64,000 nucleotides of DNA from a virus. Location: IMG/VR virus record IMGVR_UViG_3300038379_000484, positions 471 through 64,470 of that record; one strand, written 5' to 3'. This document shows, one piece after another, positions 19,635 to 41,829 of the stretch. The notes beneath the pieces are model-generated. The model was not told where the DNA came from. It saw nothing but the letters and a program-made list of their open reading frames with translations, and did no database searches. The translations under genes were made by a program, and so were the position numbers. The first letter of the stretch is position 1. Every line of letters begins with the position of its first letter.

Positions 19635-19862
19635 ATGAGCATCCTTACCATTTTCAAGGCAGAACACAGCGGCGACACCCCGCTGCTGATCGAGGCGCCG
19701 GAGATTTCGTTTGATGAGGAATCGGCGAGGCGGCAGCGTCTGATGCAGGACAAGCTGGAGTGGGCGAAGGTGTTGCTAGGCTCCCGCTATGTGCTGCATC
19801 CGTCGCGCAGGATCACGCGCGAGAACGCGCCGGTGCCGTTCATGCTGGAGAAGTCGAAGTGA
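19635..19862 (+). CDS. hypothetical protein, 75 aa
   Basis: Strong SD, first gene of the recombination operon. Confidence 0.65.
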   Translation: MSILTIFKAEHSGDTPLLIEAPEISFDEESARRQRLMQDKLEWAKVLLGSRYVLHPSRRITRENAPVPFMLEKSK

Positions 19863-21241: not shown

Positions 21242-21847
21242 ATGGCGACGATCAACAAAGTGTTCGTTCTCGGCAACGTCGGTAGAGACCCGGAGACGAG
21301 GTACATGGCGAACGGCGACGCCATCACCAACTTCAGCGTGGCCACCACGCGCCAGTGGAAGAACAAGGAGGGCGAGCGCGAGGAGGAGACGGAGTGGCAC
21401 CGCATCACCTGCTTCGGTCGCGCCGCCGAGATCGCCGGCGAGTACCTGAAGAAAGGCAGTCAGTGCCACGTCGAGGGGCGCCTGAAGACGCGCAAGTGGG
21501 TGGACAAGGACGGCAACGACCGCTACACCACCGAGATCATCTGCGAGCAGTTGACGCTGCTGTCGAAGAAGCAGGACGACGACGATCGGCGGCCGGCGAA
21601 GCGCGACCGCGACGACGACGATCGGCGGCCGGCTACCAAGCCCGCCACCAAGGGCAAGGGGCCGAAGGAGTTTCAGGACATGGAGGATGATATTCCATTC
21701 CTTTATAATACAAGTTCCGTTTTTTATGCTATGCTCACCGCTCCATCAACATCAGCGGAGCGGGCACGGCATGGCAGAGAAAGTGTGCGCGAGGTGCGGA
21801 GAACAAAAGCCGATCTCGGGGTTCTACCGGCACCCGAGAACCGCTGA
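21242..21847 (+). CDS. ssb: single-stranded DNA-binding protein with an extension beyond DDIPF
   Basis: INKV.V.GN.GRDPE.RY; TEWHRI..FG..AE...YLKKGSQ..VEGRL.TRKW; DDIPF followed by 48 more codons. Confidence 0.93.
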
Positions 21848-22238
21848 TGGCAGATTGGCTAACTGCAAGGCTTGCCACAGAGAGCTAGTCAAGGCGAACC
21901 GAGATGCAAACATCGAGCGCTATCGAGAGTATGACCGTAAGCGCGCAGATCTCCCGCACCGTGTAGAGGCCAGGATTGAATACGCCGCCACTGACCGTGG
22001 GCGCGAGCGAACAACCGAGGCGAAGCGCGCGTGGATCGCGCGAAACAAAGACCGCCGCGCCGCGCACGTCATCCTCAACAACGCCATCAAGTCCGGGCGC
22101 GTCAAGCGCCATCCGTGCGAGGTCTGCGGCGCCACACGCTCCCACGCTCACCATGACGACTACGCGCAGCCGCTGGAGGTGAGGTGGTTGTGCGCCACCC
22201 ACCATTCGTTGTTGCATAAAACAGAGAGGAGAAGCTGA
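21771..22238 (+). CDS. HNH homing-endonuclease-like protein with N-terminal Zn ribbon, 155 aa
   Basis: CARC...FY......CKAC; CEVCG...[21 protein letters not shown]. Confidence 0.85.
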
Positions 22239-22456
22239 TGCCACAGATCAACGACGAAACGCTCAACCACGTCTTCAGCTACCACCAGCCGAAGGGGGAT
22301 CAGACGACCCGCTACTTCGAGGTGCGCAACGCCGCTCGCGCGTTCGCAGCGGAGATTCTTCGCCGTTGCCCGGAGTCGCCGGAGCGCACGCTGGCTCTGC
22401 GCGACGTCCAGCGCGCGGTGATGATGGCGAACGCGGCCATTGCCCTCAACGAGTAG
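22238..22456 (+). CDS. putative immune-signal sponge (Acb2/Tad1-hairpin, DUF7681-like), 72 aa
   Basis: F.YH.P...Q..RY..VR..AR.FA..I...CP.SPERTLALR..Q.A.M.ANAAIA.N pattern; SD AGGAG. Confidence 0.65.
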   Translation: MPQINDETLNHVFSYHQPKGDQTTRYFEVRNAARAFAAEILRRCPESPERTLALRDVQRAVMMANAAIALNE

Positions 22457-27400: not shown

Positions 27401-27616
27401 ATGGCAGACGTGATCGATTTCAACCAGAGCCCGCCCGGGCAGAAGGATCAGATCATCGAGGATCTGACCCGGTACATCAAGGCGACGGATAGGATGCTGC
27501 TGATGATGTCGGAGTCGAAGCTGCAGATGGTGGAGTTCTCCTGCCTCGCGATCGACAGAGCCAACGCGAAGTCGAGGGCCGTGCACAACGGCTATCTCTG
27601 GCCTGACGGCGAATGA
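27401..27616 (+). CDS. hypothetical protein, 71 aa
   Basis: Coupled to rusA by ATGA. Confidence 0.5.
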   Translation: MADVIDFNQSPPGQKDQIIEDLTRYIKATDRMLLMMSESKLQMVEFSCLAIDRANAKSRAVHNGYLWPDGE

Positions 27617-28065
27617 GCACGCTCGTCCTAAGACTGCCCTATCCACCGTCGGTCAACCACTACTGGCGACACGCCAGAGGGCGCCACTACATCGACAGGC
27701 CGGGCCAGAGCTACAGGACTGAGGTGTGGGCGGAGGTGATGCGCTGTCGCGAGCCACAGCGCGTGCGCAATATCTTCGAGGGCCCGCTCGCGGTGAAAGT
27801 GACGGCGGCGCCGCCGGACTACGCCTACCGCGACATCGACAACATCCACAAGGCGCTGTTCGACTCGCTGAAGCACGCCAGCGTCTACGTCGACGATCAC
27901 CAGATCATCAACCTCTGCAGCTACTGGATGGAGCCAAGACGAGATGACCCGCGGGTGTGGGTGACGATCGATGAGATCGAGGCGCCGGAGTGGTGGAAGC
28001 GACGCGCCGACGCCACGTTGAAGCGACGCCGGCGCGCAGCCTCTACTTCTTCCCGAGCGACTTAG
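27613..28065 (+). CDS. rusA: RusA Holliday-junction resolvase
   Basis: LPYPPSVNHYWR, RDIDNIHKALFDSL, DDHQI motifs. Confidence 0.92.
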   Translation: MSTLVLRLPYPPSVNHYWRHARGRHYIDRPGQSYRTEVWAEVMRCREPQRVRNIFEGPLAVKVTAAPPDYAYRDIDNIHKALFDSLKHASVYVDDHQIINLCSYWMEPRRDDPRVWVTIDEIEAPEWWKRRADATLKRRRRAASTSSRAT

Positions 28066-28399
28066 CCCGCTTCGCATCGGCCGCTGCGAACGCCTCCTCC
28101 CATGTGTCGCCCTCGCCTTCGACCATGAAGGCGAAGCCGCCGAGGATGACGTGACCGACGCTGAAGCGGAAGCGGTGCGGTAGCATCCGCAGCTTCTTCT
28201 CCTCAGCGTGCAGCGCCGCCCGCTTCTGCGTGTCGGTCTCGGCCTTGAGCCGCTCCCGGATCTCGTTGTAGAGGAGCCGGTACTCCTCGCGCTGCGCTGG
28301 TGTCGACGTCTGCTTGGGGTCGTCGCGAACCGCTGCTGTCTTCCCCCACCTGCGCGTGGCCTCTGCCAGCGCGCTGCGCTTGCTCATCTTCCTTGCCAT
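28043..28399 (-). CDS. hypothetical basic protein, 118 aa
   Basis: SD GGAG before MARKMSKR; convergent with rusA. Confidence 0.6.
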   Translation of the reverse strand: MARKMSKRSALAEATRRWGKTAAVRDDPKQTSTPAQREEYRLLYNEIRERLKAETDTQKRAALHAEEKKLRMLPHRFRFSVGHVILGGFAFMVEGEGDTWEEAFAAADAKRAKSLGKK

Positions 28400-28487
28400 C
28401 GGGATCTCCCAAAGATCACCGGCCGGGATTGGCTGGCTCCCTGAAACACGCACGGAGCGTGCCAGAGATAAGTGCTTGATCTGCGGT

Positions 28488-28540
28488 GTGTCAGGATCCT
28501 GACACTGACGGGATGTCGACGCTTTCGTCGGGATGTCGAC
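28488..28540. promoter_or_regulatory. perfect 18-bp operator palindrome plus two variant sites
   Basis: GTGTCAGGATCCTGACAC at 28488-28505; G(A/T)CGGGATGTCGAC at 28507 and 28527, 20 bp apart. Confidence 0.65.
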
Positions 28541-28551
28541 ACTGCCTGAGC

Positions 28552-28595
28552 CCCCGCCGCCTATTCCGTTTGGGCGGATGTCGCCGGCGGCGGGG
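28552..28595. terminator. GC-rich hairpin, possible terminator
   Basis: CCCCGCCGCC (28552-61) pairs with GGCGGCGGGG (28586-95); intergenic; only a short T tract. Confidence 0.4.
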
Positions 28596-28604
28596 TTTCG
28601 GAGA

Positions 28605-29093
28605 TCAGGCTCCCCATGGGAGATGCGACGTCAGGATTTTATCCCGGGACCGCCTTGCACGGCGGATCGTCTTCAGCGAGAGCTTCATCTTCTCCACCCG
28701 ATCGCGCAGCCGCTTCGCTTCTTGCGAGAGCTTGACCACTTCCTGCATCGTCGCCATGTTCTCGGGCGTGTTAAGGTAGAGGCTGCTCGTGCTCTCCTTC
28801 GACCGGGCGCCGCTCTTGGTCTTGATCCACGCGTCGCCGCCTCCGCCCCATCTTCCGGGCTGCGTGGAGGTGACGGTGACGACGGCGATGCCGTCGTGCG
28901 TGCTGTCGTAGCGGGCGCCGGTGAACATCAGCGCCTCGATAGGCGTGCGCTCAGCCTTCAGCGCCTTGTCGATCACCGCCTTCATCTCGTCCAGAGACGG
29001 CATGTTGCCGAGATCGGGGCGGCTGTCGACGACGAAGCGACCGGCGCTGTCCACCTTGATGTTGAAGCCCTTGTGAGCGAAATCCTTCATCAT
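28605..29093 (-). CDS. hypothetical protein, 162 aa
   Basis: ATGA-type overlap with the DUF932-like gene. Confidence 0.6.
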   Translation of the reverse strand: MMKDFAHKGFNIKVDSAGRFVVDSRPDLGNMPSLDEMKAVIDKALKAERTPIEALMFTGARYDSTHDGIAVVTVTSTQPGRWGGGGDAWIKTKSGARSKESTSSLYLNTPENMATMQEVVKLSQEAKRLRDRVEKMKLSLKTIRRARRSRDKILTSHLPWGA

Positions 29094-30148
29094 CGCGCTC
29101 CGGCGATGGCGCGCCACTCGGAGGCGGGAAGCTCGATGAGGTTGCCGCCCATCGTCTCCAGTTCGGTGGCGCGATCGTAGCTGGCCAGATCCTCGGCGGT
29201 GCGGGTGACGGCATTGACGAGCCCGTACCTGGAGAGGTCGCCGCCAGCAATGAGGTGGCGCAGCACCGACGAGCGTTCGTTCTGGTCGAGCGTGTAGTGC
29301 TCGGCCAGCGCTTCGACAGCCTTCGGCACGTCGCCGGTGATCTGCTGGTGCGTGGTCTCCTCGATCTTGGCGATCCACTCCTGAAAGCGGGCGGCGTCGA
29401 ATGCGGCCTTGACGACGTCGCGGACCTTGCTGAGCACGGCGAGATCTTCGAGCCGCTTGGTGTTGTCGGTGAGGAGGGCCGCGATCTCGTCGCCCTCCAC
29501 GCGGCGCCCGACGTGGGCAGCGCGCAGCGCCGACTTGTCCCTGACCATCCCGTTCAGGCAGGCGAGGAACAGCGCGAACGGCTTCACCGTGATCGCGCCC
29601 AGCCCCACCTCAGAATTGGAGATCATCACGCCGGCTTCGACGACGTCACCGACCCTGCGCGACTTCACCTCGGCCCGCACCTCGGAGGTGATGGCCTTGA
29701 TGTAGAGGCGGGATTCGGTGATCTCGGTGGAAACGGCGCGAACGCCAGGGATCTCGGCAAGCACAGGCAGGGCGACGTTAGCCACGTCGTAGTTGTCGAT
29801 GCGCTGGTAGCGGTCGCTGAGGAAGGCGCGGACCTTGCCGTCGAGCGTGCGAATCATTCTGCGCTCGGGGTTGTTCTGCAGCCAGTGATTGACGTTGCGT
29901 GCGAGGAGGTGCGGTGCCTCGGCGCGCATGCGGTCGTAGTACTTGGCCGGGATCTGGATGCGCTCTGCGAGTTGGCGGTGGGCGATGCCGTTGAGCGGCA
30001 TGGCAGCGCCGTTGCCGGCGATCGACAGCGTGACGTCGTCGTTCATCGTCACTGCGGTCGTGTCGGCGATGTAGTCTTGCTTGTTGTCTGGGCTGCGCTG
30101 GCGCTCGATTTCGGCCGCGAGTTCGGACAGGCTCTTACCGGTTTTCAT
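29090..30148 (-). CDS. DUF932/DUF945-like protein, 352 aa
   Basis: MIRTLDGKVRAFLSDRYQRIDN, ISNSEVGLG, C.NGM, YGLVNAVT, RA.ELE motifs. Confidence 0.75.
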   Translation of the reverse strand: MKTGKSLSELAAEIERQRSPDNKQDYIADTTAVTMNDDVTLSIAGNGAAMPLNGIAHRQLAERIQIPAKYYDRMRAEAPHLLARNVNHWLQNNPERRMIRTLDGKVRAFLSDRYQRIDNYDVANVALPVLAEIPGVRAVSTEITESRLYIKAITSEVRAEVKSRRVGDVVEAGVMISNSEVGLGAITVKPFALFLACLNGMVRDKSALRAAHVGRRVEGDEIAALLTDNTKRLEDLAVLSKVRDVVKAAFDAARFQEWIAKIEETTHQQITGDVPKAVEALAEHYTLDQNERSSVLRHLIAGGDLSRYGLVNAVTRTAEDLASYDRATELETMGGNLIELPASEWRAIAGAR

Positions 30149-30151
30149 AGG

Positions 30152-30625
30152 CTAGTCTCCTAAGTTGTTGCCCCGCAGGGCGGGATGTGGCGCCGCAGCG
30201 CCGAAGCGGATAGTGACAGGATCGTGCGCCCCCGTCAAGAGCTTTCTCTTGTCACCGCACATGATGAGGACGCGCATACCCTCGCGTGTGAGCTTGTCGA
30301 TGAGGAGCTTCCCCGGCCCGCGGCGCCACGCCTCGGGGCGATTCGGATCGACCATGATGGCGACGAGCTTCTTGTCGCTGGCGCTGCTGTTGATGATGAA
30401 GCCGCAGCGATCCGGGCGTAGCTCTGCGGGAAGGTCGGTCATGCGCCAGACGCACAGGTACTCGCCGCAGATCGTGGGTCGCTCTGGGCGGTCGAAGATC
30501 GAGCACGCGCCATTTTGCCCGGGCCGGCAGTGCTCGCACCATCTTCCCTGTGGCTTGTTGATCTCGACTACCCTCGGCAGCTTGCAGCAGAGCGCGCACG
30601 TCCCGCAACTTGGATTGGGCGTCAT
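30152..30625 (-). CDS. YkgJ-like Cys-cluster (Zn/Fe-S) protein, 157 aa
   Basis: CGTCALCC...C.HC...CSIF..RP.IC..Y.C motif. Confidence 0.7.
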   Translation of the reverse strand: MTPNPSCGTCALCCKLPRVVEINKPQGRWCEHCRPGQNGACSIFDRPERPTICGEYLCVWRMTDLPAELRPDRCGFIINSSASDKKLVAIMVDPNRPEAWRRGPGKLLIDKLTREGMRVLIMCGDKRKLLTGAHDPVTIRFGAAAPHPALRGNNLGD

Positions 30626-30702
30626 TTGGTGGCTCCGAGAACGATGATGAGGAGCAGAGTTGCGCCGGTGACGGCGATGAAGTAGAGATCGCTAATGCTC
30701 AT
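30622..30702 (-). CDS. 26-aa single-TM micro-protein
   Basis: Overlap-coupled on both sides; hydrophobic. Confidence 0.4.
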   Translation of the reverse strand: MSISDLYFIAVTGATLLLIIVLGATK

Positions 30703-30958
30703 TGCGGCCGCCGCTGGTCTGCATCCGAATCTCCGGCTCTCCGGTGTAGCGCAGCCCGGGCTCGTCGCCGCTGATGATTTCGATCGCCGCCTTCGCGAGC
30801 ACACCCAGCGTCTCCGTTGAGGCGCCGTGCGCGCTCACGAATGCGGACCATCGGGCGAGCACGCGCACGCACCGCGCGCGCTCCTCTGACCGCGCCAGCG
30901 CCATGGCAAGAGCGTGATCCCGTTCCATCGTCTTGCGCGCCTTGTCGACGACCGTCAT
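30692..30958 (-). CDS. hypothetical protein, 88 aa
   Basis: ATGA coupling. Confidence 0.5.
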   Translation of the reverse strand: MTVVDKARKTMERDHALAMALARSEERARCVRVLARWSAFVSAHGASTETLGVLAKAAIEIISGDEPGLRYTGEPEIRMQTSGGRNEH

Positions 30959-31281
30959 GGCATGACGCTCCACAGGATGGCGGCGAGCCCGACCAGCCCG
31001 ACGCCGATGACCAGGAGCGTTGCTCTGACCAGGGCGCGCTCTGGATTCCAGTTGGCGCGCGTGTCGGGGATGCGGTAGAGGTGCTGGCGCAGGCTGTACA
31101 TGATGGGCATGCCGTCGTGCGTCCACACCTCGATCTCGTCGCGGATGGCCATGGCGTCTAGCACATAGCCAACCTCAAGGCGCGAGTAGTGGGGGATGTG
31201 CCAGCTAATGTCGGCGAGCGATCTCGGTTCGCGCACGCGCGAGAGCACGGCGATGATGTTGGCGCGGATCTCTTGATTCAT
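30955..31281 (-). CDS. winged-helix-like protein with C-terminal TM, 108 aa
   Basis: SLADIS..IP..SR.EV...LD.M..RDEI wHTH pattern; hydrophobic C-terminus. Confidence 0.55.
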   Translation of the reverse strand: MNQEIRANIIAVLSRVREPRSLADISWHIPHYSRLEVGYVLDAMAIRDEIEVWTHDGMPIMYSLRQHLYRIPDTRANWNPERALVRATLLVIGVGLVGLAAILWSVMP

Positions 31282-31898
31282 TGTCCGCATCCGCAGAGCT
31301 TGGCCAGCGCAGCCTTGGCTTCGGCGACGGCTTCAGCGATCATGTCGGCTGCTAGGTCGCTGATGTAGTCGTCGTCTGGCTTGTCGACGTCGACGCCGCC
31401 GACGGCAGCGCGCCCAAGTTGGACGCCGGCGCGCGAAGCAATGGCGCTGACGCAGAGCAAGGCGATGTCGCCGTCAGCATACTTGCGCAGCCGCTCCAGA
31501 TCTTGGGCGACGTAGGAGCGAGCCAGACGATCGGCCTCCGACTTCGAGTAGCCGCGCTTGCGCAGATCTCGCCGGCGCTCGTCGACGGAAACGTTAGGTT
31601 TGTACCAAACCCTCTGTTGCCGCCACGATCGGGGAGCGGTGACGCAGATCGAGCCGGCGACGCGGCGCTCGTGAAACTCGCCAAGCCAGTCGACTTGCCC
31701 GATCTCGTCATAGCCGGCGCGCACGCTGACGGTGAATCCGTCTACGGTGAGCGTAGCCTGAGGCAGCCCGTCTCGGTCGTATTCCCATTCGATGGGGTTG
31801 CGCTTGGTGGCGCTGCGTGCCCAAGCCAGACGAGTGCTCGTGCTGGCGTCAGGGTATTCCGCGCGCAGCGCGCGCGCGTGTGCGATCAGAGTTTGCAT
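31278..31898 (-). CDS. hypothetical early protein, 206 aa
   Basis: SD GGAGGTG; coupled to neighbours. Confidence 0.65.
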   Translation of the reverse strand: MQTLIAHARALRAEYPDASTSTRLAWARSATKRNPIEWEYDRDGLPQATLTVDGFTVSVRAGYDEIGQVDWLGEFHERRVAGSICVTAPRSWRQQRVWYKPNVSVDERRRDLRKRGYSKSEADRLARSYVAQDLERLRKYADGDIALLCVSAIASRAGVQLGRAAVGGVDVDKPDDDYISDLAADMIAEAVAEAKAALAKLCGCGQ

Positions 31899-31899
31899 G

Positions 31900-32130
31900 T
31901 CACCTCCCATAGCCTTCGGTGTCGGAAAGGGGAACGCAGGCGCGCCAGTCTTGCTGACGGCGCTCGCGCTTCTGCTGCATGCGGATTGCGCGCGCCATCG
32001 CGGCGCGTGCGTTCCAGACTTGAAACTCTACGTCCCAGCCGTCGGGCGGGACAGGCCGGCGCGCGGTGCGCTCAGGGTGTTCGGGCTTGTGCTCGATCGC
32101 GGCGGCGAAGCTGAGGATGTAGCGCTTCAT
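31900..32130 (-). CDS. hypothetical protein, 76 aa
   Basis: ATGA coupling. Confidence 0.5.
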   Translation of the reverse strand: MKRYILSFAAAIEHKPEHPERTARRPVPPDGWDVEFQVWNARAAMARAIRMQQKRERRQQDWRACVPLSDTEGYGR

Positions 32131-32354
32131 CTCGGCTCAGCGCGCTGGTGTTGGGCGGAAATTGCCATCTCCAGCCTACGCGCGGCCTCCTCTATGTGGC
32201 GCGTGTTCTGCAGCCTGAGCACGGCGGCGTCAGCGGTTGTCGAAGCCATCATTACGCGGCGCAGCGTCTTCGCGTGGGCGCGCATGCACGCCACGGCGAG
32301 GGCGAGATCCTGCGTTGATGGCCGGGTGAAATCGAGCGAGACAAGTTCACCCAT
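32127..32354 (-). CDS. hypothetical protein, 75 aa
   Basis: SD GGAG; overlap-coupled. Confidence 0.5.
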   Translation of the reverse strand: MGELVSLDFTRPSTQDLALAVACMRAHAKTLRRVMMASTTADAAVLRLQNTRHIEEAARRLEMAISAQHQRAEPR

Positions 32355-32592
32355 TGGAAACTCCGAGGCGGCGCCGCTCCAGATCCGCCATTGCCTTGCA
32401 GCGAGTGAAGAAGCGGTGCTCGCACGTGCCGGCCTCCCATGCAAGCGGATCCCCGCTCTGTACGAGGTAGCCGTCGAATTTCAGGCGGGCCGCGCTGTCC
32501 ATGTTCATGCAAAAGTAGCGCTTGATCTCGCTGTCGCCGTATAGCAGAGCGCGCCTGACCGCGGCCGCGATATGGTCAAGTGTGTGTGCCAT
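32347..32592 (-). CDS. hypothetical protein, 81 aa
   Basis: First gene after the 32652 promoter; SD GGAGAG. Confidence 0.55.
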   Translation of the reverse strand: MAHTLDHIAAAVRRALLYGDSEIKRYFCMNMDSAARLKFDGYLVQSGDPLAWEAGTCEHRFFTRCKAMADLERRRLGVSNG

Positions 32593-32624
32593 GATCTCTC
32601 CCAAGGTGATAGTGCTAAACGCAT

Positions 32625-32652
32625 AGCATACGCCGTGCCATGATCCTGTCAA
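32625..32652 (-). promoter_or_regulatory. sigma70 promoter with operator-like site
   Basis: - strand TTGACA-N16-TATGCT; GACAGGATCATGGC overlaps the -35. Confidence 0.7.
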
Positions 32653-32761
32653 TACCGGGTCAGGAACAACAGCACGCGTTGCGCCAGATACGGCCATTGC
32701 GGCCACGTCGTACCCGTCAAGATCTCGATACGGCGCGCGAGCCAGCAGACGGGGCGGGCGA

Positions 32762-32992
32762 TCATGCCAGCCCCAGACGGATGACGGCAGCGTCATAGAT
32801 GGCGCGGCCGTTCTCGGTCAAGTTCTCGGTGCTCAGCATCAGGCCGGGCCGGAATCGCATGCGATCGAGTTGAACGCCGATCGACTCGCCGCGGCGGCGA
32901 TTCGATGGGCGCTCCCAGAGCACGCCGCCGACGTTATAGTCCCATTCGAGGCAGGCGTAAGCCTCGCAAATATCAAAGCGATCGAAAAACAT
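32762..32992 (-). CDS. hypothetical protein, 76 aa
   Basis: TGATG coupling; FDRFDICEAY...E.DYN motif. Confidence 0.6.
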   Translation of the reverse strand: MFFDRFDICEAYACLEWDYNVGGVLWERPSNRRRGESIGVQLDRMRFRPGLMLSTENLTENGRAIYDAAVIRLGLA

Positions 32993-33813
32993 CAGCGGTT
33001 CTCCTCTGTCGCGGTGAACGGCCACGCCGAGGCTTCGCGCAGCCCGCATTCGCTCCCCCAGATAACGAGATCATGGCGGGCGATGCACTCGCGCGCCTCG
33101 CGCTGCCAGCGCTCGGTGTAGCTGGCGCAGATCTCCGCCCAGCGTGCGCGCGCGAGCTTCGCGGCTTGGCGTGGCGCCTCCGACGGTGGCGCCGCATACG
33201 TGCCGTCACCCTCGCCGAGACTGGCAAGCGCGGAGGTGTAGACTTCGGTGACGATCGCGCGCACGCGCTCCGCCTCAGCAAGCGGTGCGCGGATATGGTC
33301 GGCGAAGATCTGCAGCGCTTCCGCGAGCGTAGGCTCGCGGTAGTCCGTTTTCTGCCACGGCTTGGCCGGGTCAATGTCGGGCTTGGGGAAATGGCGCTTG
33401 CTGTTGCCGGCGTGGTAGCGCTCGCCGAAGGCGCCCGGGACGGTGCCGGCGAGGTCGTACCAGCCGTTAGCCTCGGCGTGCATGGGTTTGCCGTCGATGT
33501 CGGAGAGGTGGAGCGCGGCGAGGTCGGCGAGATCGGGCCGATGCTGCAGAATTTCCTCGTGCATGCAGCCGCCGGCCACGTCTTCGGTGCGCGCGCGGCC
33601 GCGCGAGTCTGTCCGCGTCTCATATAGCGTAGCGGTCAAGCTGAAGTAGGGCGCGCTGTTGCCGCGGATATAGTGCAGACCTCCGCCAATCACGAGACGC
33701 GATGCGATGCCATCGTTGGCGAAGTGAACCGAATCCAGGACGGGCGTGCGCGAGCGGTCGACCATTGGCGCGCCGTTCTGGTCGCGGGCGGTGCGGGTGA
33801 CGGTGTCAGGCAT
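32992..33813 (-). CDS. conserved-looking hypothetical phage protein, 273 aa
   Basis: YFSLT, GGCMHEEI, LHL.D.DG.PMH..ANGWY motifs suggest a His/Cys metal site. Confidence 0.7.
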   Translation of the reverse strand: MPDTVTRTARDQNGAPMVDRSRTPVLDSVHFANDGIASRLVIGGGLHYIRGNSAPYFSLTATLYETRTDSRGRARTEDVAGGCMHEEILQHRPDLADLAALHLSDIDGKPMHAEANGWYDLAGTVPGAFGERYHAGNSKRHFPKPDIDPAKPWQKTDYREPTLAEALQIFADHIRAPLAEAERVRAIVTEVYTSALASLGEGDGTYAAPPSEAPRQAAKLARARWAEICASYTERWQREARECIARHDLVIWGSECGLREASAWPFTATEENR

Positions 33814-33937
33814 GGTGACGTTTCTCCGGGCGCCGGCTGCGGCGCGTGCTGATGCGGTTAAGGATGCGGGCGCGGGCGCGAGCTTCGCGGCGCGCTTCGC
33901 GGCGGTCTTCGGCGGTGAAGGCTCGGGACTGGTGCAT
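33806..33937 (-). CDS. Arg-rich 43-aa peptide (not in ORF track)
   Basis: MHQSRAFTAEDRREARREARARARILNRISTRRSRRPEKRHHA; fills the gap exactly and overlaps the next start. Confidence 0.5.
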   Translation of the reverse strand: MHQSRAFTAEDRREARREARARARILNRISTRRSRRPEKRHHA

Positions 33938-33939
33938 GG

Positions 33940-34131
33940 TCAATCCCAGCTATCGGGCACGTGTTGCGGGTAGAAGACTTCGCCGGTCTTGTGCGCGGTG
34001 CTGTTTGCGTCCAGCGCTTCCACGCGCAGCCTGCCGCTCGTGTCGGTGAAGACCACGTAGGGAACGCCGAAGTAATCGGCATTGGCTTGCGCGGAGCCGC
34101 GGGCGGTGCTGAGGCTGATTGAATAGCCCAT
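33940..34131 (-). CDS. hypothetical protein, 63 aa
   Basis: SD GAGGAG. Confidence 0.55.
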   Translation of the reverse strand: MGYSISLSTARGSAQANADYFGVPYVVFTDTSGRLRVEALDANSTAHKTGEVFYPQHVPDSWD

Positions 34132-34134
34132 GGC

Positions 34135-34461
34135 TTACTCCTCGAAGTAGCCGGGATCTTCGGCTTGCGCGCCGTCGTTATCGGCGAGCCAGTCGAGGGC
34201 GGCGGCGATGAAGGTAGCGGCCTTGATGCCGCAGGCCGGGCAGTCGACGGTGCCGTCGGTGCCGGAGTGAGCGCAGGGCGCGGTCACTTCGCCGTTCTCG
34301 TCTTCGGCCTGCACGTCGCGAATGTCCCAGCCGAAGATTGACGCCACGGCGGGCGCGTCGTAGTCGACCTGCACGAGCACGGATTGCTCCTCGTCTTCGC
34401 TCAGAATCTCGCCGGCGCAGCCGGGCGCGTTTACATCAGTGTTCCAGGTGATAGTGCTCAC
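34135..34461 (-). CDS. acidic hypothetical protein, 108 aa
   Basis: GTG start after GGAGA; C.H...DG.VDC..CG motif. Confidence 0.6.
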   Translation of the reverse strand: MSTITWNTDVNAPGCAGEILSEDEEQSVLVQVDYDAPAVASIFGWDIRDVQAEDENGEVTAPCAHSGTDGTVDCPACGIKAATFIAAALDWLADNDGAQAEDPGYFEE

Positions 34462-34519
34462 TTCATTCTCCCAAGGTTGAAGGCGCGAGCGCTCATGCAA
34501 GCCTCGTGCCATTATCGTG

Positions 34520-34732
34520 TTATGCGCAATCCTCGCAGTAGCGTTGACGCGCCTGGATCAGGGCGTTGCAGCCCCCGCACTCGTGCACCTCGTTCTCGCA
34601 GCCGCGCTCGTGCGAAGGCAGGCCGTTGATAACGAGGGCGGCGCAGCACGAGCATTGCACGCTGTAGGTGCGGGTGAACGGGATATGCCGGGACCGATCG
34701 AATCCCAGCGCGCGCAGTGTCGACAGTTTCAT
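34520..34732 (-). CDS. small Cys/His-rich Zn-finger protein, 70 aa
   Basis: CSCC...HE.GC...C.GC...C..C. Confidence 0.6.
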   Translation of the reverse strand: MKLSTLRALGFDRSRHIPFTRTYSVQCSCCAALVINGLPSHERGCENEVHECGGCNALIQARQRYCEDCA

Positions 34733-34769
34733 GGCGTGGCCTTTCGGGGTTGCGGCAGCATCGATGTTG

Positions 34770-35090
34770 TTAGAGCCAGTCGCCGGGGCGTAGATACATG
34801 CGCCCGGCCTCGCGTAGGAGCCGAGAGTTGGAGAAACAGAGTTGGCGCAAAGGCCAGCCGTAGAGTGTCAGCGGCGTGGCGCGGCAGTCGTAGTTTCTGG
34901 CGAAGGCGACCTTCGCTGGCGGAGGTTGCTGCGCGAGCGTGCGCCGGCTGACGCGGCGCGCTTTGTCGCGTTCGCGATTGTGTTCGGATTCGGGCGCGAG
35001 CGATGCGGCGTGGCCGGCGGGCTCGATCAAGCCGATGCGCTCGCCGTTGACGGTGACGATTCGGGTAATGGCGTAGTAGACGGTTCCCAT
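34770..35090 (-). CDS. hypothetical protein, 106 aa
   Basis: In the leftward early cluster; plausible SD. Confidence 0.5.
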   Translation of the reverse strand: MGTVYYAITRIVTVNGERIGLIEPAGHAASLAPESEHNRERDKARRVSRRTLAQQPPPAKVAFARNYDCRATPLTLYGWPLRQLCFSNSRLLREAGRMYLRPGDWL

Positions 35091-35151
35091 GGCTTTGCCT
35101 GCTTGGTGTCGGGAAGTCGCCGGTGTTGACGTCTTCCCGACGGGGTTGTCG

Positions 35152-35496
35152 TTACTCTGGTGAATCGGAGCCTTCGGCGATCAGGTCGCCGCAGTGGTCG
35201 CAAATCACGTCCTGGTCTGGAGCTTCGCAGATCTCCAGGCCGAGGGGGCGCCAGCCGCCGGCGTTATCGCGGCTGCGGTGGGCGGCGGAGACGAGGCGCC
35301 ATTCCTTGGTGACGCAGTCGGGGCAGAGCAGGGCGCCGTCGGTGAGCACCAGGGCGAGGGCGTAGCCGCCCGGCCACGCGTAGCGCTCGCGCCGGACGAT
35401 GCGGGCGGCGCCCATTGGGTGCTCGCGCCGGACGGTGTCGGCGAAAGCCTGACGCCGGCGCGTGTCGAGATCCATCGCGTCGAGGTCAATGGCCAT
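35152..35496 (-). CDS. hypothetical Zn-binding protein, 114 aa
   Basis: YAWPGGY.L.....DG..LC..C and C..C motifs. Confidence 0.6.
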   Translation of the reverse strand: MAIDLDAMDLDTRRRQAFADTVRREHPMGAARIVRRERYAWPGGYALALVLTDGALLCPDCVTKEWRLVSAAHRSRDNAGGWRPLGLEICEAPDQDVICDHCGDLIAEGSDSPE

Positions 35497-35698
35497 TGTT
35501 CACCTCGGCGGCGATCGATTGGGTTGCGCCCTGCGCGTGGCTTAGCCAAGCCCGGGCCGCCAGTGCGAAGCGTTCGATGCGGTCCTGGTCGGCGCCGCCG
35601 ATCGCCGCCGCAACCTCGGCGACGGCGTCGAGATCCGCGGCGGCCTCCTTGATTCTGTTGAGCGCGAGCCTGAGGAGTTCGATTTGATCTGCTGTCAT
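35486..35698 (-). CDS. hypothetical helical protein, 70 aa
   Basis: SD GGAGG; coupled. Confidence 0.55.
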   Translation of the reverse strand: MTADQIELLRLALNRIKEAAADLDAVAEVAAAIGGADQDRIERFALAARAWLSHAQGATQSIAAEVNNGH

Positions 35699-35874
35699 GC
35701 TTGCCTCCGGGCGGCCTGTTCGCTGCTGAGTTCGGCGGCGATGCGGTTGTAGAGGCGGAGCGCTGCGGCCGCCTGAACGGTGGCGTTGCGGGCGGAGTCG
35801 AGCGCGTAGAGGGCGGAAAGGGCGTCGAGCACGAGCGCCACCTCCGCGGGCGTGAGGTCGAGGTGCGTGCTCAT
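35695..35874 (-). CDS. hypothetical helical protein, 59 aa
   Basis: SD GGAGG; ATGA coupling. Confidence 0.55.
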   Translation of the reverse strand: MSTHLDLTPAEVALVLDALSALYALDSARNATVQAAAALRLYNRIAAELSSEQAARRQA

Positions 35875-36155
35875 GCCTGCCTCCGGCGGCCGTCGAGCCG
35901 GTGCGCGATGCCGGCGACCAGCCGGTACCACGTCAGGCCGATTCGGCTCGTGCGGAAGCGTGCGGTGAGGATGGGGAAGCGGCAGTGTAGCGCGTGCACG
36001 CGGCCGCGGACGCGCAGGGCGAGGCCGGCAAAGAGGATGATGCGCGAGGACTGCGGGTCAATGCCGGCGTGCAGGTACTGCCAGCCCGATGCGGTGCGCA
36101 GGTAGAAGGCGCGCCACGCGCAGCCCTCGGCGAAGATGAGTCGGCGCGCGCTCAT
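35871..36155 (-). CDS. hypothetical protein, 94 aa
   Basis: SD GGAGGAAGG; ATGA coupling. Confidence 0.5.
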   Translation of the reverse strand: MSARRLIFAEGCAWRAFYLRTASGWQYLHAGIDPQSSRIILFAGLALRVRGRVHALHCRFPILTARFRTSRIGLTWYRLVAGIAHRLDGRRRQA

Positions 36156-36400
36156 GCCTTCCTCCCAGCCGCCACGGGGGCGAGGAAGGTGCGGAGATCG
36201 GCGAAGACCACGCCGAGACAGCGGACAAGCTCCAGCGTCGAGACGCCGCAAGCGTTGGCGATCGAGACGAATTCGGGTCCGCTGACGTCGCAGCGCAGGA
36301 ACATCAACGTTTCCGGGGCGATGCGTGCGGGAAGGTGCGGCAGCCGGCGCGAGGCTTCGGCGCAGGCATTCGCGACAGTGACGTAGGGCGCAGTGGCCAT
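36152..36400 (-). CDS. hypothetical protein, 82 aa
   Basis: Probable first gene of the leftward early cluster; SD GGAGA. Confidence 0.5.
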   Translation of the reverse strand: MATAPYVTVANACAEASRRLPHLPARIAPETLMFLRCDVSGPEFVSIANACGVSTLELVRCLGVVFADLRTFLAPVAAGRKA

Positions 36401-36610
36401 GTGCAAGTCTCCAGCCCCAGCCGGCGCGAGGTCGCGTCAGTCTGCTGGGGAGATCGGCTACATGCAGAAAGCGTGCCACCTCGGCCTTGCGTGCGTGCGC
36501 ATGCGTGCGCGTTCGATGCGTGAGGGCGCGGACGAAGGTGGGAGGGCGGGAAGGGGAGCGGGGGCGGCGTTGACGTCGCACGCCGTCACTGTCTGACGCC
36601 CGGCGTCAGC

Positions 36611-36624
36611 GTCAGGATGCTGAC
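36611..36624. promoter_or_regulatory. operator-like palindrome GTCAGGATGCTGAC
   Basis: One mismatch to the 28490 palindrome; intergenic, upstream of the early cluster. Confidence 0.55.
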
Positions 36625-36878
36625 GGACCCGCGCCCGGCACCGGCGCGTCGTCGAGCGCTGTCGCCGGTGACGCAGCACGAGGAGCGCAATCGTCGTGGC
36701 GTGGCGCGCAGCGCGTGCACCAAGGCGGCGGCCGGCGGGCAGCCCGCGGTGGCGCAGCAACCACCCCCGGCGCACCGGACCACGCCAGCGCCCCCGGGGC
36801 CCGGGAAACTTCATATACCCCCGTCCACGCGCGCTTACCCGCCCTCACCGCTGCTGCGGTGCAACACCCCCCGGCCCA

Positions 36879-36894
36879 TGTTTCACGTGGAACA
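36879..36894. promoter_or_regulatory. parS: chromosomal-type parS site (ParB/Spo0J binding)
   Basis: TGTTTCACGTGGAACA, whose reverse complement TGTTCCACGTGAAACA is the canonical bacterial parS 16-mer; intergenic. Confidence 0.8.
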
Positions 36895-36969
36895 CCATGG
36901 GGGCGTGTGAGCGCTCGCTCAGCTTTTCCGCCAGTCCAGATCAGGAGAGTGAGTGGTCACTCACATCGT

Positions 36970-37040
36970 TGGAGCGGGTGGCGGGAGTTGAACCCGCGGG
37001 GCGCGGTTGTCGAGGCCGAGCCCCTGCCCGGCACACCCAC
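36970..37040 (-). ncRNA. tRNA-like RNA (acceptor stem, T-arm, CCA; no canonical D or anticodon arm), 71 nt
   Basis: GUGGGUG/CACCCGC acceptor stem, U73, encoded CCA, T-arm GCGGG-UUCAACU-CCCGC; central 36 nt folds as a GGGGC/GCCCC helix. Confidence 0.6.
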
Positions 37041-37294
37041 GTTGGCCGGCAGTCACGCCGGCTGACGGTCGCCTCCTCCCGAGGCCGGGAGGCCGAGGCT
37101 CGAAACGAGAGGGAAACAGGCACCCTCGTCCGCTGACGCCGTCGTCGCATTCGCTGTATATCCGGGCGGGGCCCCGGCTTGCGATCGTCGCTATGCGCAG
37201 CGATGGGATCGGGCTTGGTGAACAGCCCCAGCGTCCCCCTCCACCTGTCCAGCAGCCTTCGGGGTACGGGTGGAGCCTGCGCTCAACCCGGGGC

Positions 37295-37324
37295 TTGCGT
37301 CAACAGGGCGCGGGGCGTTACGAT
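37295..37324 (+). promoter_or_regulatory. candidate promoter of the packaging/structural operon
   Basis: TTGCGT-N18-TACGAT, followed by the palindrome at 37336-37351. Confidence 0.45.
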
Positions 37325-37364
37325 GGAAAAATCTGGTGAGCGAGCGCTCACACTGAGGAGAGCC

Positions 37365-37415
37365 ATGGGTTGTCCCTGCCGCGGGCGTCGCCCCACACCA
37401 CCGCCGAAGCGCTAG
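37365..37415 (+). CDS. 16-aa basic micro-ORF upstream of terS
   Basis: SD GAGGAG; MGCPCRGRRPTPPPKR; stop 2 nt before the terS ATG. Confidence 0.4.
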   Translation: MGCPCRGRRPTPPPKR

Positions 37416-37417
37416 CT

Positions 37418-38008
37418 ATGGTCTGGGGCGGGAAGGGCAGGCGCGACGACTACCGCCGTCTCGATGAGATCGGCTACGACGTCGTCGACGCCAGAGTCGC
37501 AGCAAGCCTCGATCAAGCGCGTCGCGACCGCCCCGACGACAAGTACCCCGAGCGCGGCGCCTTCACAGCGGTCGCCGCCGAGTTGAAGGTCTCCGACTTC
37601 AACCTGCGCATGTGGTGGCGCCGCCAGCGCACCATCGTCTTCCTCGCCGACACCGACCCCGCCGAAATCCTCGACCTCATCGCGAGCGGCCTCACGCCTG
37701 CCGACATCGCCTTGGAGTACGACGTCAGCGTCCGTGTCGTCGAGGAATGGATACGCAGCAACGCCGCCACCGAGGACGTGGCCGCGGCGAAGGACGCGAT
37801 GGCCGACATGAAGTTCGCCCGCGTCAGACGCGAGATCGAGGCCGCGCGCTCCGAGACCGAGATCAAGAGGGCATTGGCCTGCCACGGCATAGACAAGCAC
37901 GTGGCCGCCGCCAACAGCCGCAGATACTCGGAGGACAAGAACGTGCGCATCAACGCCGGACAGGCCACGGTGATGGAGATCAGCTTCGTCAGGAAGCCCG
38001 AACAATGA
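37418..38008 (+). CDS. terS: terminase small subunit, ~196 aa
   Basis: HTH (ADIALEYDVSVRVVEEWI), helical oligomerisation region; position upstream of terL. Confidence 0.7.
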   Translation: MVWGGKGRRDDYRRLDEIGYDVVDARVAASLDQARRDRPDDKYPERGAFTAVAAELKVSDFNLRMWWRRQRTIVFLADTDPAEILDLIASGLTPADIALEYDVSVRVVEEWIRSNAATEDVAAAKDAMADMKFARVRREIEAARSETEIKRALACHGIDKHVAAANSRRYSEDKNVRINAGQATVMEISFVRKPEQ

Positions 38009-38121: not shown

Positions 38122-38294
38122 TGATCGTCGCCAGAATCGCAAGGGTCGAGGACAAGCTCGTCGTGTTCTTCGACTGCCCGAACTGCGGCACCCAGCACTA
38201 CGTCTGCCCGCCCCCGCTCGAATCCGTGGACGGGAACTGCGAGCAGTGCGGGGCAGAGATCGTCATCGAGCCCGTCATGGGTGGCAACTCGTGA
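38121..38294 (+). CDS. Zn-ribbon protein, 57 aa
   Basis: CPNC...CEQC; overlaps the terL start. Confidence 0.55.
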   Translation: MIVARIARVEDKLVVFFDCPNCGTQHYVCPPPLESVDGNCEQCGAEIVIEPVMGGNS

Positions 38295-39757
38295 CCAACA
38301 TCGCCTCCTTTGAGCAGAAGGCGAAGCCAGCCATCCGCTACCAGCCGCCGTGCGAGGTCGTCGAAGCCTTCCACAACACGAAAGCGCTCGTTCGCGGCAT
38401 CAAGGGCCCGCGCGGGTCGGGCAAGAGCGGGGCCTGCGTGATGGAGGGAATGGGCGCAGCCGGCGCGCAGACACCGAACCACGAGGGCCGACGCAGAACC
38501 CGATTTCTCGTCCTTCGCGACACCTACCGGCAGTTGGAGACCACCACGATCCCCAGCTTCAGGAAGTGGCTGGGACATGCCACCCGCCTCACCGGTCAGT
38601 ACCCGATCAAGGGCTACACCAAGATCCCGCTCCCGGATCAGACCGTGCTGGAGATGGAGACGGTGTTCCTCGCCATGGACGGCGAGAACATCATCGACAA
38701 CCTGCAGTCCTTCGAGGCGAGCTTCGCCTGGGTGAACGAGGCCAGAGCCATCGCCAACCGCAACGTCATCAACATGATCGTGGCAAGCTGTGGCCGCTTC
38801 CCCTCGAAGGACGAGGAGGGCTGCACCAATTCGTTCGTCGTCATGGACACCAACCCCTGCGACGAATTTCACTGGTGGTATCAGGACGATGTTGTCGAGC
38901 GCCCGCGCGGCTGGGAGTTCTTCTCGCAGGTGGCGCCGCTCGTCTACATGAAGGACTCGCCCATCTTCTTGAACGACCCCGACTTCTACACGGCGAATGC
39001 AGCCGCCACCTACGCCCGCATTCAGAACAAGGGCTACGCGTACTGGCTCGACCAGATCCCGGGTGCGACCGACCAGTTCATCCGCACCATGGTCATGGGC
39101 AAGTACGGGACGGTCGTTGCGGGCAAGGCCGTCTACGCGCAGTTCTGGTCGGAGGAGTGCGTGGCGCAGCAGCCGCTGGAGTGGCTGCAGCAATTGCCGA
39201 TCGTGATCGGCATCGACACCTCCGGGCTCCACCCCGGCGCGGTCTTCTGCCAAGCCTATGGTGGTCGTATCCACGTCCTGCGCGAGGTTCATGCGAAAGA
39301 CACGCCCTTCGACAGCTTCGCCGAGAGCGTGTTGGCGCCGATGATCGCGCAGGAGTTCCGCCTGAACCCGATCGTTGCCGTCGTCGACCCCTCGAATCCG
39401 AGGGCTGGTGTCGGCGGCAAGCGCGCATCGCAGGTGCTCGAAGGCTGGGGCATCCACACCGTACTCGCGCCCACGAACAGGCTCAACCAGCGCCTGGGCG
39501 CGGTGACGAAGCTGCTCCAGCGCAGGCAGGCTTTTCTCGTCGATCGCTCGTGCAAGCTCGTCATCGAGGGCTTCAGAGGCAAGTACCACTACAAGAAGAT
39601 CGACTCAAGTGGGTTGATCGAGGCGTACAAGCCCGAGCCGGAGAAGGACGTCTACGCCGATGTCCACGACGGCCTGCAATACGCGTGCCTCTACTACGAG
39701 CGCGGGGCCACGACTGACAAGGTCGTGGTGCCGCCGCGCAGGGTGATGATGGTGTGA
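38291..39757 (+). CDS. terL: terminase large subunit, ~488 aa
   Basis: Walker A GPRGSGKS, Walker B AWVNEA, MDTNP coupling motif, RNase H GIDT/VDPS/DVHDGLQY. Confidence 0.92.
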   Translation: MTNIASFEQKAKPAIRYQPPCEVVEAFHNTKALVRGIKGPRGSGKSGACVMEGMGAAGAQTPNHEGRRRTRFLVLRDTYRQLETTTIPSFRKWLGHATRLTGQYPIKGYTKIPLPDQTVLEMETVFLAMDGENIIDNLQSFEASFAWVNEARAIANRNVINMIVASCGRFPSKDEEGCTNSFVVMDTNPCDEFHWWYQDDVVERPRGWEFFSQVAPLVYMKDSPIFLNDPDFYTANAAATYARIQNKGYAYWLDQIPGATDQFIRTMVMGKYGTVVAGKAVYAQFWSEECVAQQPLEWLQQLPIVIGIDTSGLHPGAVFCQAYGGRIHVLREVHAKDTPFDSFAESVLAPMIAQEFRLNPIVAVVDPSNPRAGVGGKRASQVLEGWGIHTVLAPTNRLNQRLGAVTKLLQRRQAFLVDRSCKLVIEGFRGKYHYKKIDSSGLIEAYKPEPEKDVYADVHDGLQYACLYYERGATTDKVVVPPRRVMMV

Positions 39758-41829
39758 ACGCCGTCGCCCCCAGCCAAGAAGTTGTTGCCGTCGCCAGCGA
39801 CCGCCAGACGATCGCCGACGGATCCAAGGGCGCGGCATCGCGCTTCGATCCGCTTGCGGATCTCGTCGTCAGGCGCTGGTGGGATGCGTGGCAGTACCGG
39901 CAGTCCTACCAGCTTGGCGATTGCGCGGTCGAGACCATTCTCGGCCGCTGTTACAGGCAGCGCGCGGGCGTGTACGAGCCAGATGAGGTCGGTCTCCTCG
40001 ACGGCATCGACGTCTACGTCCCGCTGACCGACATGAAGTGCATGGCCGCCGAGGCGTGGTTGAGGGACATGCTCGCCACCGTCATCGAGATGCCGTTCAC
40101 GATCGAGCCCACGCCGCTGCCCGATCTCCCGGAGCGGCTGAAGCAGAAGATCCTGCGCGATCTCAAGCTGGAGATCGCCACCGCCGCCAGCGGCGGTCAG
40201 GTCTTTGCTGTGGCCCAGCGTCTTGGCGAGCTTCCTCGTGATCTCGCCGACATGGCCTTCGGGCAGATGATCTCCGACTACCCCGGAGATCTCGCCGACG
40301 TAGCCGCTCGTCTGAAGGAGGCCGCGCACTCCATGGCCTTCTACGAGGCGAAGCAAGCCACGGACAGGATGTCGGTTCTCATCCGCGACCAACTCGTGCA
40401 GATGCAGTGGGTGCAGGCGCTGATGCACATCTTCCACGACATGGTCACGTACCCGGCCGCGGTCCTCAAAGGCCCGATCCTGGTGGAGAAGCCGCGCATT
40501 CGCTGGCAGGGCAATCGCCGTGTCGTCAGATCCGAGCAGGGTCTGGAGTGCTATCGCGTCGCGCCTTTCGACATCATGCCCAGCGCCGACAGCCCCGACT
40601 GCCAGCGCGGCACCTTCATCATCGAGAAGGCGAGGATGACGCGGCGCTCTCTGGCGTGGGCGCGCCGACAGCGGTTCTGGATCACTGAGAACGTAGACAA
40701 GATCCTTGAGGAGTACCGCACCTATCAACGAAATTGGCTCGTCTTCGGCACGAGCTACAACCTGGAGCAGCCCATCATCACCCCCAACCTCTGGGGCGAT
40801 GAGGAGACGATCGACGTCCTCGAACACCACGGCATCTTGAGCGGTCGCGAGCTTCGCCCCTACGGCTTCAGCGCCGACGATCGGCAGTTCTACGAGGCAA
40901 AGATCGTGGTCTGTGGTGGGCGCACGCTCTGCGCGAAGGTGAACGGCGTCCCGCATCTGGCCGAGCGTCCCTATCACAACGCCAGCTACGAGATGATGGG
41001 CGACCAGTTCTGGAATCTGTGCCCGACGATGAAGCTGCGCGATGTGCAGCGCACCGTCAACGCCGCCGTGCGTGCGCAGATCCGCAACATGGCCTTCTCA
41101 AGCGGGCCCCTCGCCGAGATCGATGTCGCGCGCGTGCAGCGCTACGTCACGGACATCGCGCAGTTGATGCGCACCGACCCCTACTCGGCTTTGCTCACCG
41201 ATCCCGACATGATGAACGGCGGCAGGCCAGCGCGCCAGTTCCAGAACGTGCCGCAGATCATTGTGCCCTTGCAGAACACGATCGCCTTCTACATGAAGAT
41301 GGCTGACGACGTCAGCAACATTCCCGCCTACGCTCAGGGCGAGACCGGGCTTCAGGGGGCGGGGCGCACCTACCGCGGGTTCTCGGCTGTGTTCGCTCAG
41401 GCCATCAAGGTGTTCAAGATGCCGGTCCAGAACCTCGATGTCGGCGTCTTCCAGCCCTTTGGCACCCAGCTTTACAACTACAACATGACGACGGCGAAGG
41501 ACGAGAGCATCAAAGGCGATGCCGAGGTCCGTGCACGCGGCAGTCAGGGCTTGGTCGATCGCGAGCAGCAGCAGCAGAAGGCGCTGGAGGCGATGCAGGT
41601 GGTGACGCAGATGTCGCCTGCCGTTGCCGAGATCGCGCCCGAGGAGGCAAGACGCGTGCTCCGCTACACCTGGGCGAAGGCGATGGAGGGCTTGGGCCTG
41701 CCCATCCGTCAGTTCGGGCTGGAGCCAGAGGTTGAGGCCGCGCTCGGCGCGAAGGGCATGACTGCTGAGGGCGAGCCCGGCTCGGCGACGCCCATCCCAT
41801 CGATCGGCGCCACGCCATCACCCGGATAG
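39754..41829 (+). CDS. portal protein, 691 aa
   Basis: Follows terL; PFTIEPTP.PDL, VLKGP, LRDVQR.VNA..R....NMA.SSGP, GETG..GAGRT.RGFS podophage portal motifs. Confidence 0.85.
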   Translation: MNAVAPSQEVVAVASDRQTIADGSKGAASRFDPLADLVVRRWWDAWQYRQSYQLGDCAVETILGRCYRQRAGVYEPDEVGLLDGIDVYVPLTDMKCMAAEAWLRDMLATVIEMPFTIEPTPLPDLPERLKQKILRDLKLEIATAASGGQVFAVAQRLGELPRDLADMAFGQMISDYPGDLADVAARLKEAAHSMAFYEAKQATDRMSVLIRDQLVQMQWVQALMHIFHDMVTYPAAVLKGPILVEKPRIRWQGNRRVVRSEQGLECYRVAPFDIMPSADSPDCQRGTFIIEKARMTRRSLAWARRQRFWITENVDKILEEYRTYQRNWLVFGTSYNLEQPIITPNLWGDEETIDVLEHHGILSGRELRPYGFSADDRQFYEAKIVVCGGRTLCAKVNGVPHLAERPYHNASYEMMGDQFWNLCPTMKLRDVQRTVNAAVRAQIRNMAFSSGPLAEIDVARVQRYVTDIAQLMRTDPYSALLTDPDMMNGGRPARQFQNVPQIIVPLQNTIAFYMKMADDVSNIPAYAQGETGLQGAGRTYRGFSAVFAQAIKVFKMPVQNLDVGVFQPFGTQLYNYNMTTAKDESIKGDAEVRARGSQGLVDREQQQQKALEAMQVVTQMSPAVAEIAPEEARRVLRYTWAKAMEGLGLPIRQFGLEPEVEAALGAKGMTAEGEPGSATPIPSIGATPSPG

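Follow-up and report, generated by a model that had tools for sequence, protein, structure and literature searches.

A chromosomal-type parS site, conserved in most relatives, in a freshwater phage with no recognised partition or integration genes

In Pseudomonas, Myxococcus and Burkholderia, chromosomal ParB (Spo0J)-CTP complexes form on 16-bp parS sites, which occur as origin-proximal clusters beside parAB. The parS of most species reads TGTTTCACGTGAAACA, all chromosomal sites of Pseudomonas are TGTTCCACGTGGAACA, and M. xanthus carries TGTTCCACGTGGAACG (PMC5450999, PMC7022226, PMC4368675). Centromeres of this general kind are also found on mobile replicons. In P1, P7, N15 and the extrachromosomal prophages of mycobacteriophages a phage centromere serves non-integrated inheritance, and all these phages encode their own ParA and ParB along with private centromeres (PMC10999674, PMC7157519). 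The integrative mobilisable element SGI1 hijacks the parABS system of an IncC plasmid through its own copies of parS, carrying only the centromere in cis and drawing its stability from the type Ia ParAB of the helper plasmid (PMC10954446). The closest described case is the virulent podophage phi29, for which five host-type parS sites and segregation of the phage genome into the prespore by host Spo0J are reported (PMC2731898, PMC9437464). Like its relative Nf, phi29 is described there (after Meijer et al. 2005) as combining podovirus-type genes and host-type parS in cis with no integrase, ParA or ParB, the five sites of phi29 being set in a 19-kb linear genome with protein-primed replication and their role being tied to sporulation and to Spo0A boxes.

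Here we describe a site of the same type in an uncultured phage known from a 65,392-bp IMG/VR record, of which bases 471-64470 make up the window, the 64,000-nucleotide stretch of DNA that was analysed. This phage, like phi29, carries a host-type parS and encodes no detected ParA, ParB or integrase. The original prediction had stated that no well-described case of such a cis-only centromere was known in a podophage, a statement that gives way before the five Spo0J-used sites reported for phi29. The new phage differs from phi29 in having one site, a genome of 65 kb and 65% GC, a freshwater source, a half-site of the C5/G12 type and a host that is not expected to sporulate. It resembles SGI1 in presenting only a centromere, but it is a phage and the centromere is of chromosomal type; unlike phages of the P1/P7/N15 type, it encodes no partition proteins for it. 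Borrowing of host ParB is therefore not without precedent, and what we see here is probably the phi29 principle in a one-site form, carried by phages whose hosts are probably Gram-negative and non-sporulating. The explanation that we favour, and consider somewhat more likely than not, is that host chromosomal ParB loads at the 16-mer, that selection has preserved this function in a phage lacking partition and integration genes, and that partition is the likely benefit.

The site and the genome that carries it

The site lies at positions 36879-36894 of the window (no strand assigned), where TGTTTCACGTGGAACA, a palindrome that fits the chromosomal-type parS pattern tGTTNCACGTGAAACa, is an exact 16-mer match and a T5/G12 hybrid of two natural half-sites. 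On the reverse strand it reads TGTTCCACGTGAAACA, the classical parS of Bacillus type, and matches it at 16/16 positions. The pattern TGTTNCACGTGNAACA has this single match in the window and in the entire 65,392-bp record, where chance alone would give about 2e-4 exact matches per 65 kb, and the perfect parS 16-mer that had been claimed for a non-coding junction is thus present as the sole copy in the record. The 7-bp half-sites of parS are not enriched in the genome (9, against 11.1 +/- 3.3 in dinucleotide shuffles). Several parS sites per genome, of which phi29 has five, are not found here, nor is a position near oriC with parAB of the same replicon, the record being viral and containing neither parA nor parB. 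In contrast to the origin-proximal clusters of chromosomes, the site stands by itself, and about 19 kb separate it and the non-coding hub around it from a putative DnaA-box region that the original prediction had read at 16.3-18.2 kb. From its letters and surroundings, we would class it as a parS-type sequence and not as a chromosomal centromere.

The letters that vary are informative with regard to ParB tolerance. Across the window and its relatives, only parS positions 1, 5, 12 and 16 vary, with position 3 added in one relative (L009). The form of the clade, GTTCCACGTGGAAC, is the native parS type of Pseudomonas and Myxococcus. Natural parS sites also vary at positions 5 and 12, which ParB tolerates, and the Burkholderia protein ParB-c1 still binds strongly when T5C/A12G is introduced or when position 1, 3 or 5 is changed in a single arm (PMC5450999). 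All variants in this phage clade would accordingly belong to the set that ParB tolerates elsewhere.

The genome looks complete, because an ORF reads across the joined ends of the record after removal of a 7-bp overlap and because related contigs are of similar length (66,355 and 66,705 bp). CheckV estimates completeness at 100%, and in IMG/VR the record is listed as 'linear', the class for sequences in which no terminal repeat was found. No candidate emerged from a six-frame HMM search of the whole record (E<=1) for Phage_integrase, Resolvase, rve, ParB_N, HTH_ParB, CbiA or AAA_31, families that the same procedure detected in 11 to 14 of 14 control genomes; the predicted absence of ParA, ParB and integrase is upheld by this search, and nothing resembling the ParABS cassette of P1/N15-type phage-plasmids was seen, with no parA or parB beside the site or anywhere in the record. 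These results bear on the suggestion of a temperate or plasmid-like phage whose own maintenance genes are too divergent to recognise or missing from the assembly, with parS as part of that system. Most of the early genes are of unassigned function and the record is classed 'linear' with no terminal repeat, both of which leave some room for it, but the completeness estimate, the ORF across the joined ends, the related contigs of 66.4 and 66.7 kb and the empty searches for all seven families make it very unlikely.

Among 63 ORFs, Pfam and PHROG scans recognised SSB, Erf, Mu-Gam-like, RusA, NinB, Gp157 and DUF932 proteins, an Acb2/Tad1-type sponge, a primase zinc ribbon, endolysins, an SLT domain, an SU10-type adaptor and internal virion proteins, but no repressor, Par protein, DNA polymerase or helicase. 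The set is lambdoid in style, with SSB at 21242-21847, Erf at 19760-20674, the Mu-Gam-like gene at 20667-21239, NinB at 14472-14867 and RusA at 27613-28065; the sponge gene lies at 22238-22456. A phage with SSB, Erf, Gam, RusA and NinB and no detected polymerase or helicase is expected to replicate in a host-dependent, plasmid-like manner. The label 'podophage' is putative, and is drawn from the adaptor and internal virion proteins and from the distant podophage matches of portal and TerL.

The DNA comes from a freshwater metagenome and, among sequencing runs, was found only in its probable source metagenome, a second run containing a 0.09 share of the sampled words, too small to be of use. 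The nearest named homologues of the SSB protein, at 53-60% identity, belong to Usitatibacter, Burkholderiales and Pseudomonadota MAGs and hint weakly at a host among the Betaproteobacteria; a sporulating host is unlikely because the genome is high in GC and its relatives are proteobacteria-like. No isolated relative was identified when the hub was compared by blastn with 50,697 isolated phages, and tblastn with TerL and portal against isolated phages gave distant podophage matches only (<=34% identity). A search with the capsid protein (Atlas) likewise returned viral clusters only.

Conservation and loss of the site among relatives

Relatives of the phage, all uncultured, were collected by TerL searches and share 56-86% TerL identity with it. 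The 14-bp core GTTYCACGTGGAAC is exact, and in the same genomic position upstream of TerS, in L002, L003, L004, L012, L016 and L017, whose TerL proteins are 56-79% identical to that of the window. The full sites are TGTTCCACGTGGAACA in L002 (TerL identity 79%) and again in L012 (56%), TGTTCCACGTGGAACT in L017 (72%), CGTTCCACGTGGAACA in L003 (60%), GGTTCCACGTGGAACG in L004 (61%) and TGTTCCACGTGGAACG in L016 (61%), and L009 (65%) has TGCTCCACGTGAAACA, with one mismatch. A syntenic parS, the check proposed with the original prediction, is therefore kept in 7 of the 9 lineages whose sequence extends far enough upstream, exactly in 6 and with a single mismatch in the other. For a fixed 14-mer the chance expectation is about 5e-6 per 1.2-kb hub. 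The flanks of the site are unalignable beyond the closest relative, it lies 13 bp from the neighbouring operator in the window but 47 bp from it in L002, and L003, L004 and L016 have no such operators.

In two related lineages parS is missing upstream of TerS, namely G001, a complete genome of 66.7 kb, and the P0008 type, in which an AAA_25 gene adjoins TerS; neither has an integrase or ParB_N. The parS-bearing relatives have hubs of about 0.85-1.5 kb, as against about 130 bp in G001. In a TerL tree the G001 locus L010 joins the parS-bearing L003 and L004 with support of 100/99 (the other branches are unresolved), a grouping that points to loss of parS in G001. A near-parS in G001, GTTTCACGGGAAAC, lies 5.4 kb upstream of TerL and inside an ORF; with about 0.15 one-mismatch sites expected per genome, it was taken as a chance occurrence. 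Because two related lineages have lost the site, parS is accessory and not essential, and in this clade it would appear to be under selection yet dispensable.

One contig among the relatives differs in size. The ENA contig that holds loci L016 and L156 (P0013) is 133,850 bp long, almost exactly twice the genome length, and its start, 382 bp ahead of parS, falls within the hub. An assembled dimer could explain this length, as could a phage together with host flank.

The non-coding hub

A codon-position GC gene map places the site in a non-coding hub of 963 bp (36407-37369, no strand assigned), the sole large non-coding region of the genome, in which parS is accompanied by palindromic operators and a tRNA-like element. 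Three ORFs overlap the site, but their GC at codon position 2 (0.66-0.73) is unlike that of real genes in this genome (0.43-0.47), so these ORFs are judged non-coding; many indels in the alignment of the window and L002 hubs are not multiples of three. The hub is flanked by a leftward operon (28043-36406) and by the operon of TerS, TerL and portal. The sides had been labelled 'early' and 'packaging' operons, of which the second label agrees with the TerS, TerL and portal genes on the + strand to the right, while on the - strand to the left are small genes of mostly unassigned function. The first of these, at 36152-36406 on the - strand, was delimited by codon-position GC, encodes 84 aa and has no Pfam or PHROG match. 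On the other side, the small terminase subunit TerS (37370-38008, + strand) is a 212-aa HTH protein with a weak HTH_23 match and a match to phrog_664, a DNA-binding protein, and its positional counterparts in related contigs match Sf6_terminase weakly. It is followed on the + strand by the large terminase TerL (38246-39757; phrog_2, E 2.7e-22), the query with which the relatives were found, and by the portal protein (39754-41829; phrog_332), whose distant tblastn matches are portals of HMO-2011, CRP and Rhizobium podophages. Cumulative GC skew begins to climb near 18 kb and has its maximum at the hub (36-38 kb), which lies at a turning point of the skew.

A repeat search located three operator-like palindromes in the hub, none with an assigned strand. 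The first, GTGAGCG-CT-CGCTCA at 36905-36921, lies 10 bp to the right of parS and forms the left arm of a perfect 17-bp inverted repeat, the right arm of which is the third, GTGAGCG-AG-CGCTCAC at 37336-37353, just upstream of the TerS start. The second is GTGAGTG-GT-CACTCA at 36949-36963; L002 has the same middle palindrome (TGAGTGGTCACTCA) at 914, with identical surrounding sequence in the alignment of the two hubs. As 16-bp copies the three share the form GTGAGYG-NN-CRCTCAC, the outer pair being 415 bp apart and bracketing the tRNA-like element, and they are probably operators of some phage regulator. A further element, GTCAGGATGCTGAC at 36611-36624 (no strand assigned), is visible in the sequence as a copy of GWCAGGATCCTGWC, a genome-wide putative operator named in the original prediction.

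The tRNA-like element (36966-37040, - strand), recognised from sequence and fold, lies about 90 bp to the right of parS and has a 7-bp acceptor stem, a discriminator base, an encoded CCA and a canonical T-arm (GCGGG-TTCAACT-CCCGC), with no normal anticodon arm. L003 keeps it (about 2455-2530) with compensatory changes in the acceptor stem, from GUGGGUG/CACCCGC to GUGGGAG/CUCCCAC, L004 has a variant (about 760-830), and L002 lacks it. ARAGORN and Rfam made no call on positions 36966-37040, by which a reading as a tRNA was ruled out; a simple attP core was ruled out by the presence of both acceptor strands. Two other stretches of the hub are conserved. A block at about 36775-36835, GGACCACGCC...CCCCCGGGG...CATATACCCCCGT...GCGCTTACC, lies 50-100 bp to the left of parS, recurs to the left of parS in L002, L012 and L016, whose hubs have otherwise diverged, and may be a leftward promoter or leader. 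Some 60 bp at about 37170-37235 (GGCTTGCGATCGTCGCTA...GATGGGATCGGGCTTGGTGAACAGCCCC) are almost identical in the window and L002 within a diverged hub, and could be a pac- or promoter-related site.

This setting gives grounds for asking whether host ParB is recruited for something other than inheritance, such as silencing or insulating the divergent promoters of the hub by a sliding clamp, loading SMC for the organisation of phage DNA during replication, or titrating ParB on many phage copies so that host segregation is disturbed. The site lies between divergent operons and 10 bp from an operator-like palindrome, clamps of the ParB family can silence genes over long range (PMC11790492; compare P1 ParB and KorB), and loss in two lineages would suit an accessory, modulatory role. 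On the other hand, any cis site would land in the hub, as it is the only large non-coding region; the spacing to the operator is not conserved (13 vs 47 bp in L002), with no operators at all in L003, L004 and L016; and a phage with a short lytic cycle would seem to profit little from titration. We regard such uses as unlikely, though they deserve to be kept in mind, as partition and other uses of ParB are indistinguishable from sequence alone.

A second question raised by the hub is whether the palindrome is a site for a phage-encoded protein, be it the HTH protein TerS at a pac-related site or an unrecognised regulator, with the parS match a coincidence. The TerS gene starts about 490 bp downstream of the site, the hub contains several other palindromic operators, and many phage proteins have no family match. 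Set against this, a random 14-bp palindrome would be identical to the universal centromere with a probability of ~6e-5, the whole record encodes no ParB-like DNA-binding domain detectable by HMM, and the same motif occurs with different neighbours in at least 150 unrelated viral clusters. The exactness of the identity and the recurrence of the motif across unrelated viruses make a coincidental operator improbable.

parS across viruses and its possible role in persistence

Exact-match scans of 2.9 million IMG/VR contigs, with matched control palindromes, were used to place the site in a wider context. The C5/G12 form of parS, TGTTCCACGTGGAACA, was found in at least 120 stretches, compared with 3 for the same letters reversed (ACAAGGTGCACCTTGT) and 12 for a control with its two halves swapped (GTGGAACATGTTCCAC), and canonical parS, TGTTTCACGTGAAACA, in at least 119, compared with 21 for its half-swapped control (GTGAAACATGTTTCAC). 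The former loci form 80 sequence clusters among the matches listed, span GC contents of 0.2 to 0.7 and have diverse flanks, often following terminators; the latter form 71 clusters among the matches listed, and 32 of these loci hold two or more sites and 13 three or more. Relative to matched palindromes, the motif is enriched 10- to 40-fold in the viral collection. This bears on whether the site in our phage might be neutral, either a chance sequence or a functionless remnant of captured host DNA. Its single copy, its unenriched half-sites and its absence from some relatives could be taken that way, but neither the enrichment nor the exact conservation across relatives whose hubs are otherwise unalignable is easily reconciled with neutrality, which we consider highly unlikely, at the very bottom of the range of explanations.

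A PHROG census of 136 flanking ORFs found ordinary phage genes, including TerL, TerS, portals, helicases, capsid, tail and endolysin. Packaging genes top the census, but no positional rule linking parS to them is claimed, as the choice of the longest flanking ORF favours such genes. ParB_N was found in 5 of 95 parS-bearing parent records (3/50 and 2/45), and in 2 of 28 among records at least 90% complete, while Phage_integrase was found by HMM in 0 of 50 parS-bearing records tested; these frequencies come from a fast first-look HMM filter whose sensitivity on viral records is uncalibrated, and many of the records are fragments. Four complete viral records of 15-16 kb with inverted terminal repeats (L213, L220, L241 and L247, in G066, G071, G082 and G085, respectively) carry canonical parS, in three copies each in L241 and L247, and ParB_N was detected in none of the four. 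In size and ends they recall phi29-like phages, which would mean that the phi29 case reaches into uncultured relatives as well. In three unrelated viral contigs (L076, L107 and L140) the two forms occur in tandem, as TGTTCCACGTGGAACA, 9 bp and TGTTTCACGTGAAACA.

Returning to our favoured explanation, in which the phage site loads host ParB, the phage DNA would be circularised after infection and remain non-integrated, and the single parS would nucleate clamps of host ParB-CTP on it, making the phage DNA a client of the host ParABS machinery. Single parS sites can stabilise plasmids. The likeliest pay-off would be that phage genomes are positioned in the cell and inherited by both daughters when lysis is delayed, as it may be in a carrier state, in pseudolysogeny or in slow-growing freshwater hosts, and the scheme could be seen as a vegetative-cell counterpart of the Spo0J-dependent prespore segregation of phi29. 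Both ParB binding and partition as the benefit are what we infer, and the original reading of the site as piracy of host ParB is partly supported. Counting against it are the presence of one site only, compared with five in phi29 and clusters on chromosomes, and the two related lineages that propagate without one. A stable carrier state in particular has no direct support: neither a repressor nor any other sign of dormancy was recognised, and when 185,579 species genomes were searched with a TerL profile, no relative turned up in them, whether as an episome or as a prophage.

The collection-wide counts suggest that the device is common and crosses phage families, and the site in this phage, from a freshwater clade that probably infects Gram-negative bacteria, appears to be one instance of a common and little-described phage device. 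More tentatively, it is possible that cis-only host-type parS is a widespread device, acquired convergently in hundreds of unrelated lineages that mostly lack ParB and integrase, and that it provides a gene-free basis for carrier states and pseudolysogeny. Outside phi29 sporulation, we know of no accepted mechanism for the persistence of virulent-looking phages in slow-growing natural hosts. If true, a 16-bp cis element that links phage DNA to host segregation would be a minimal, gene-free answer to this problem. Should the finding hold, it would affect the prediction of phage lifestyle from gene content only, and parS-ParB biology would gain a new class of clients.
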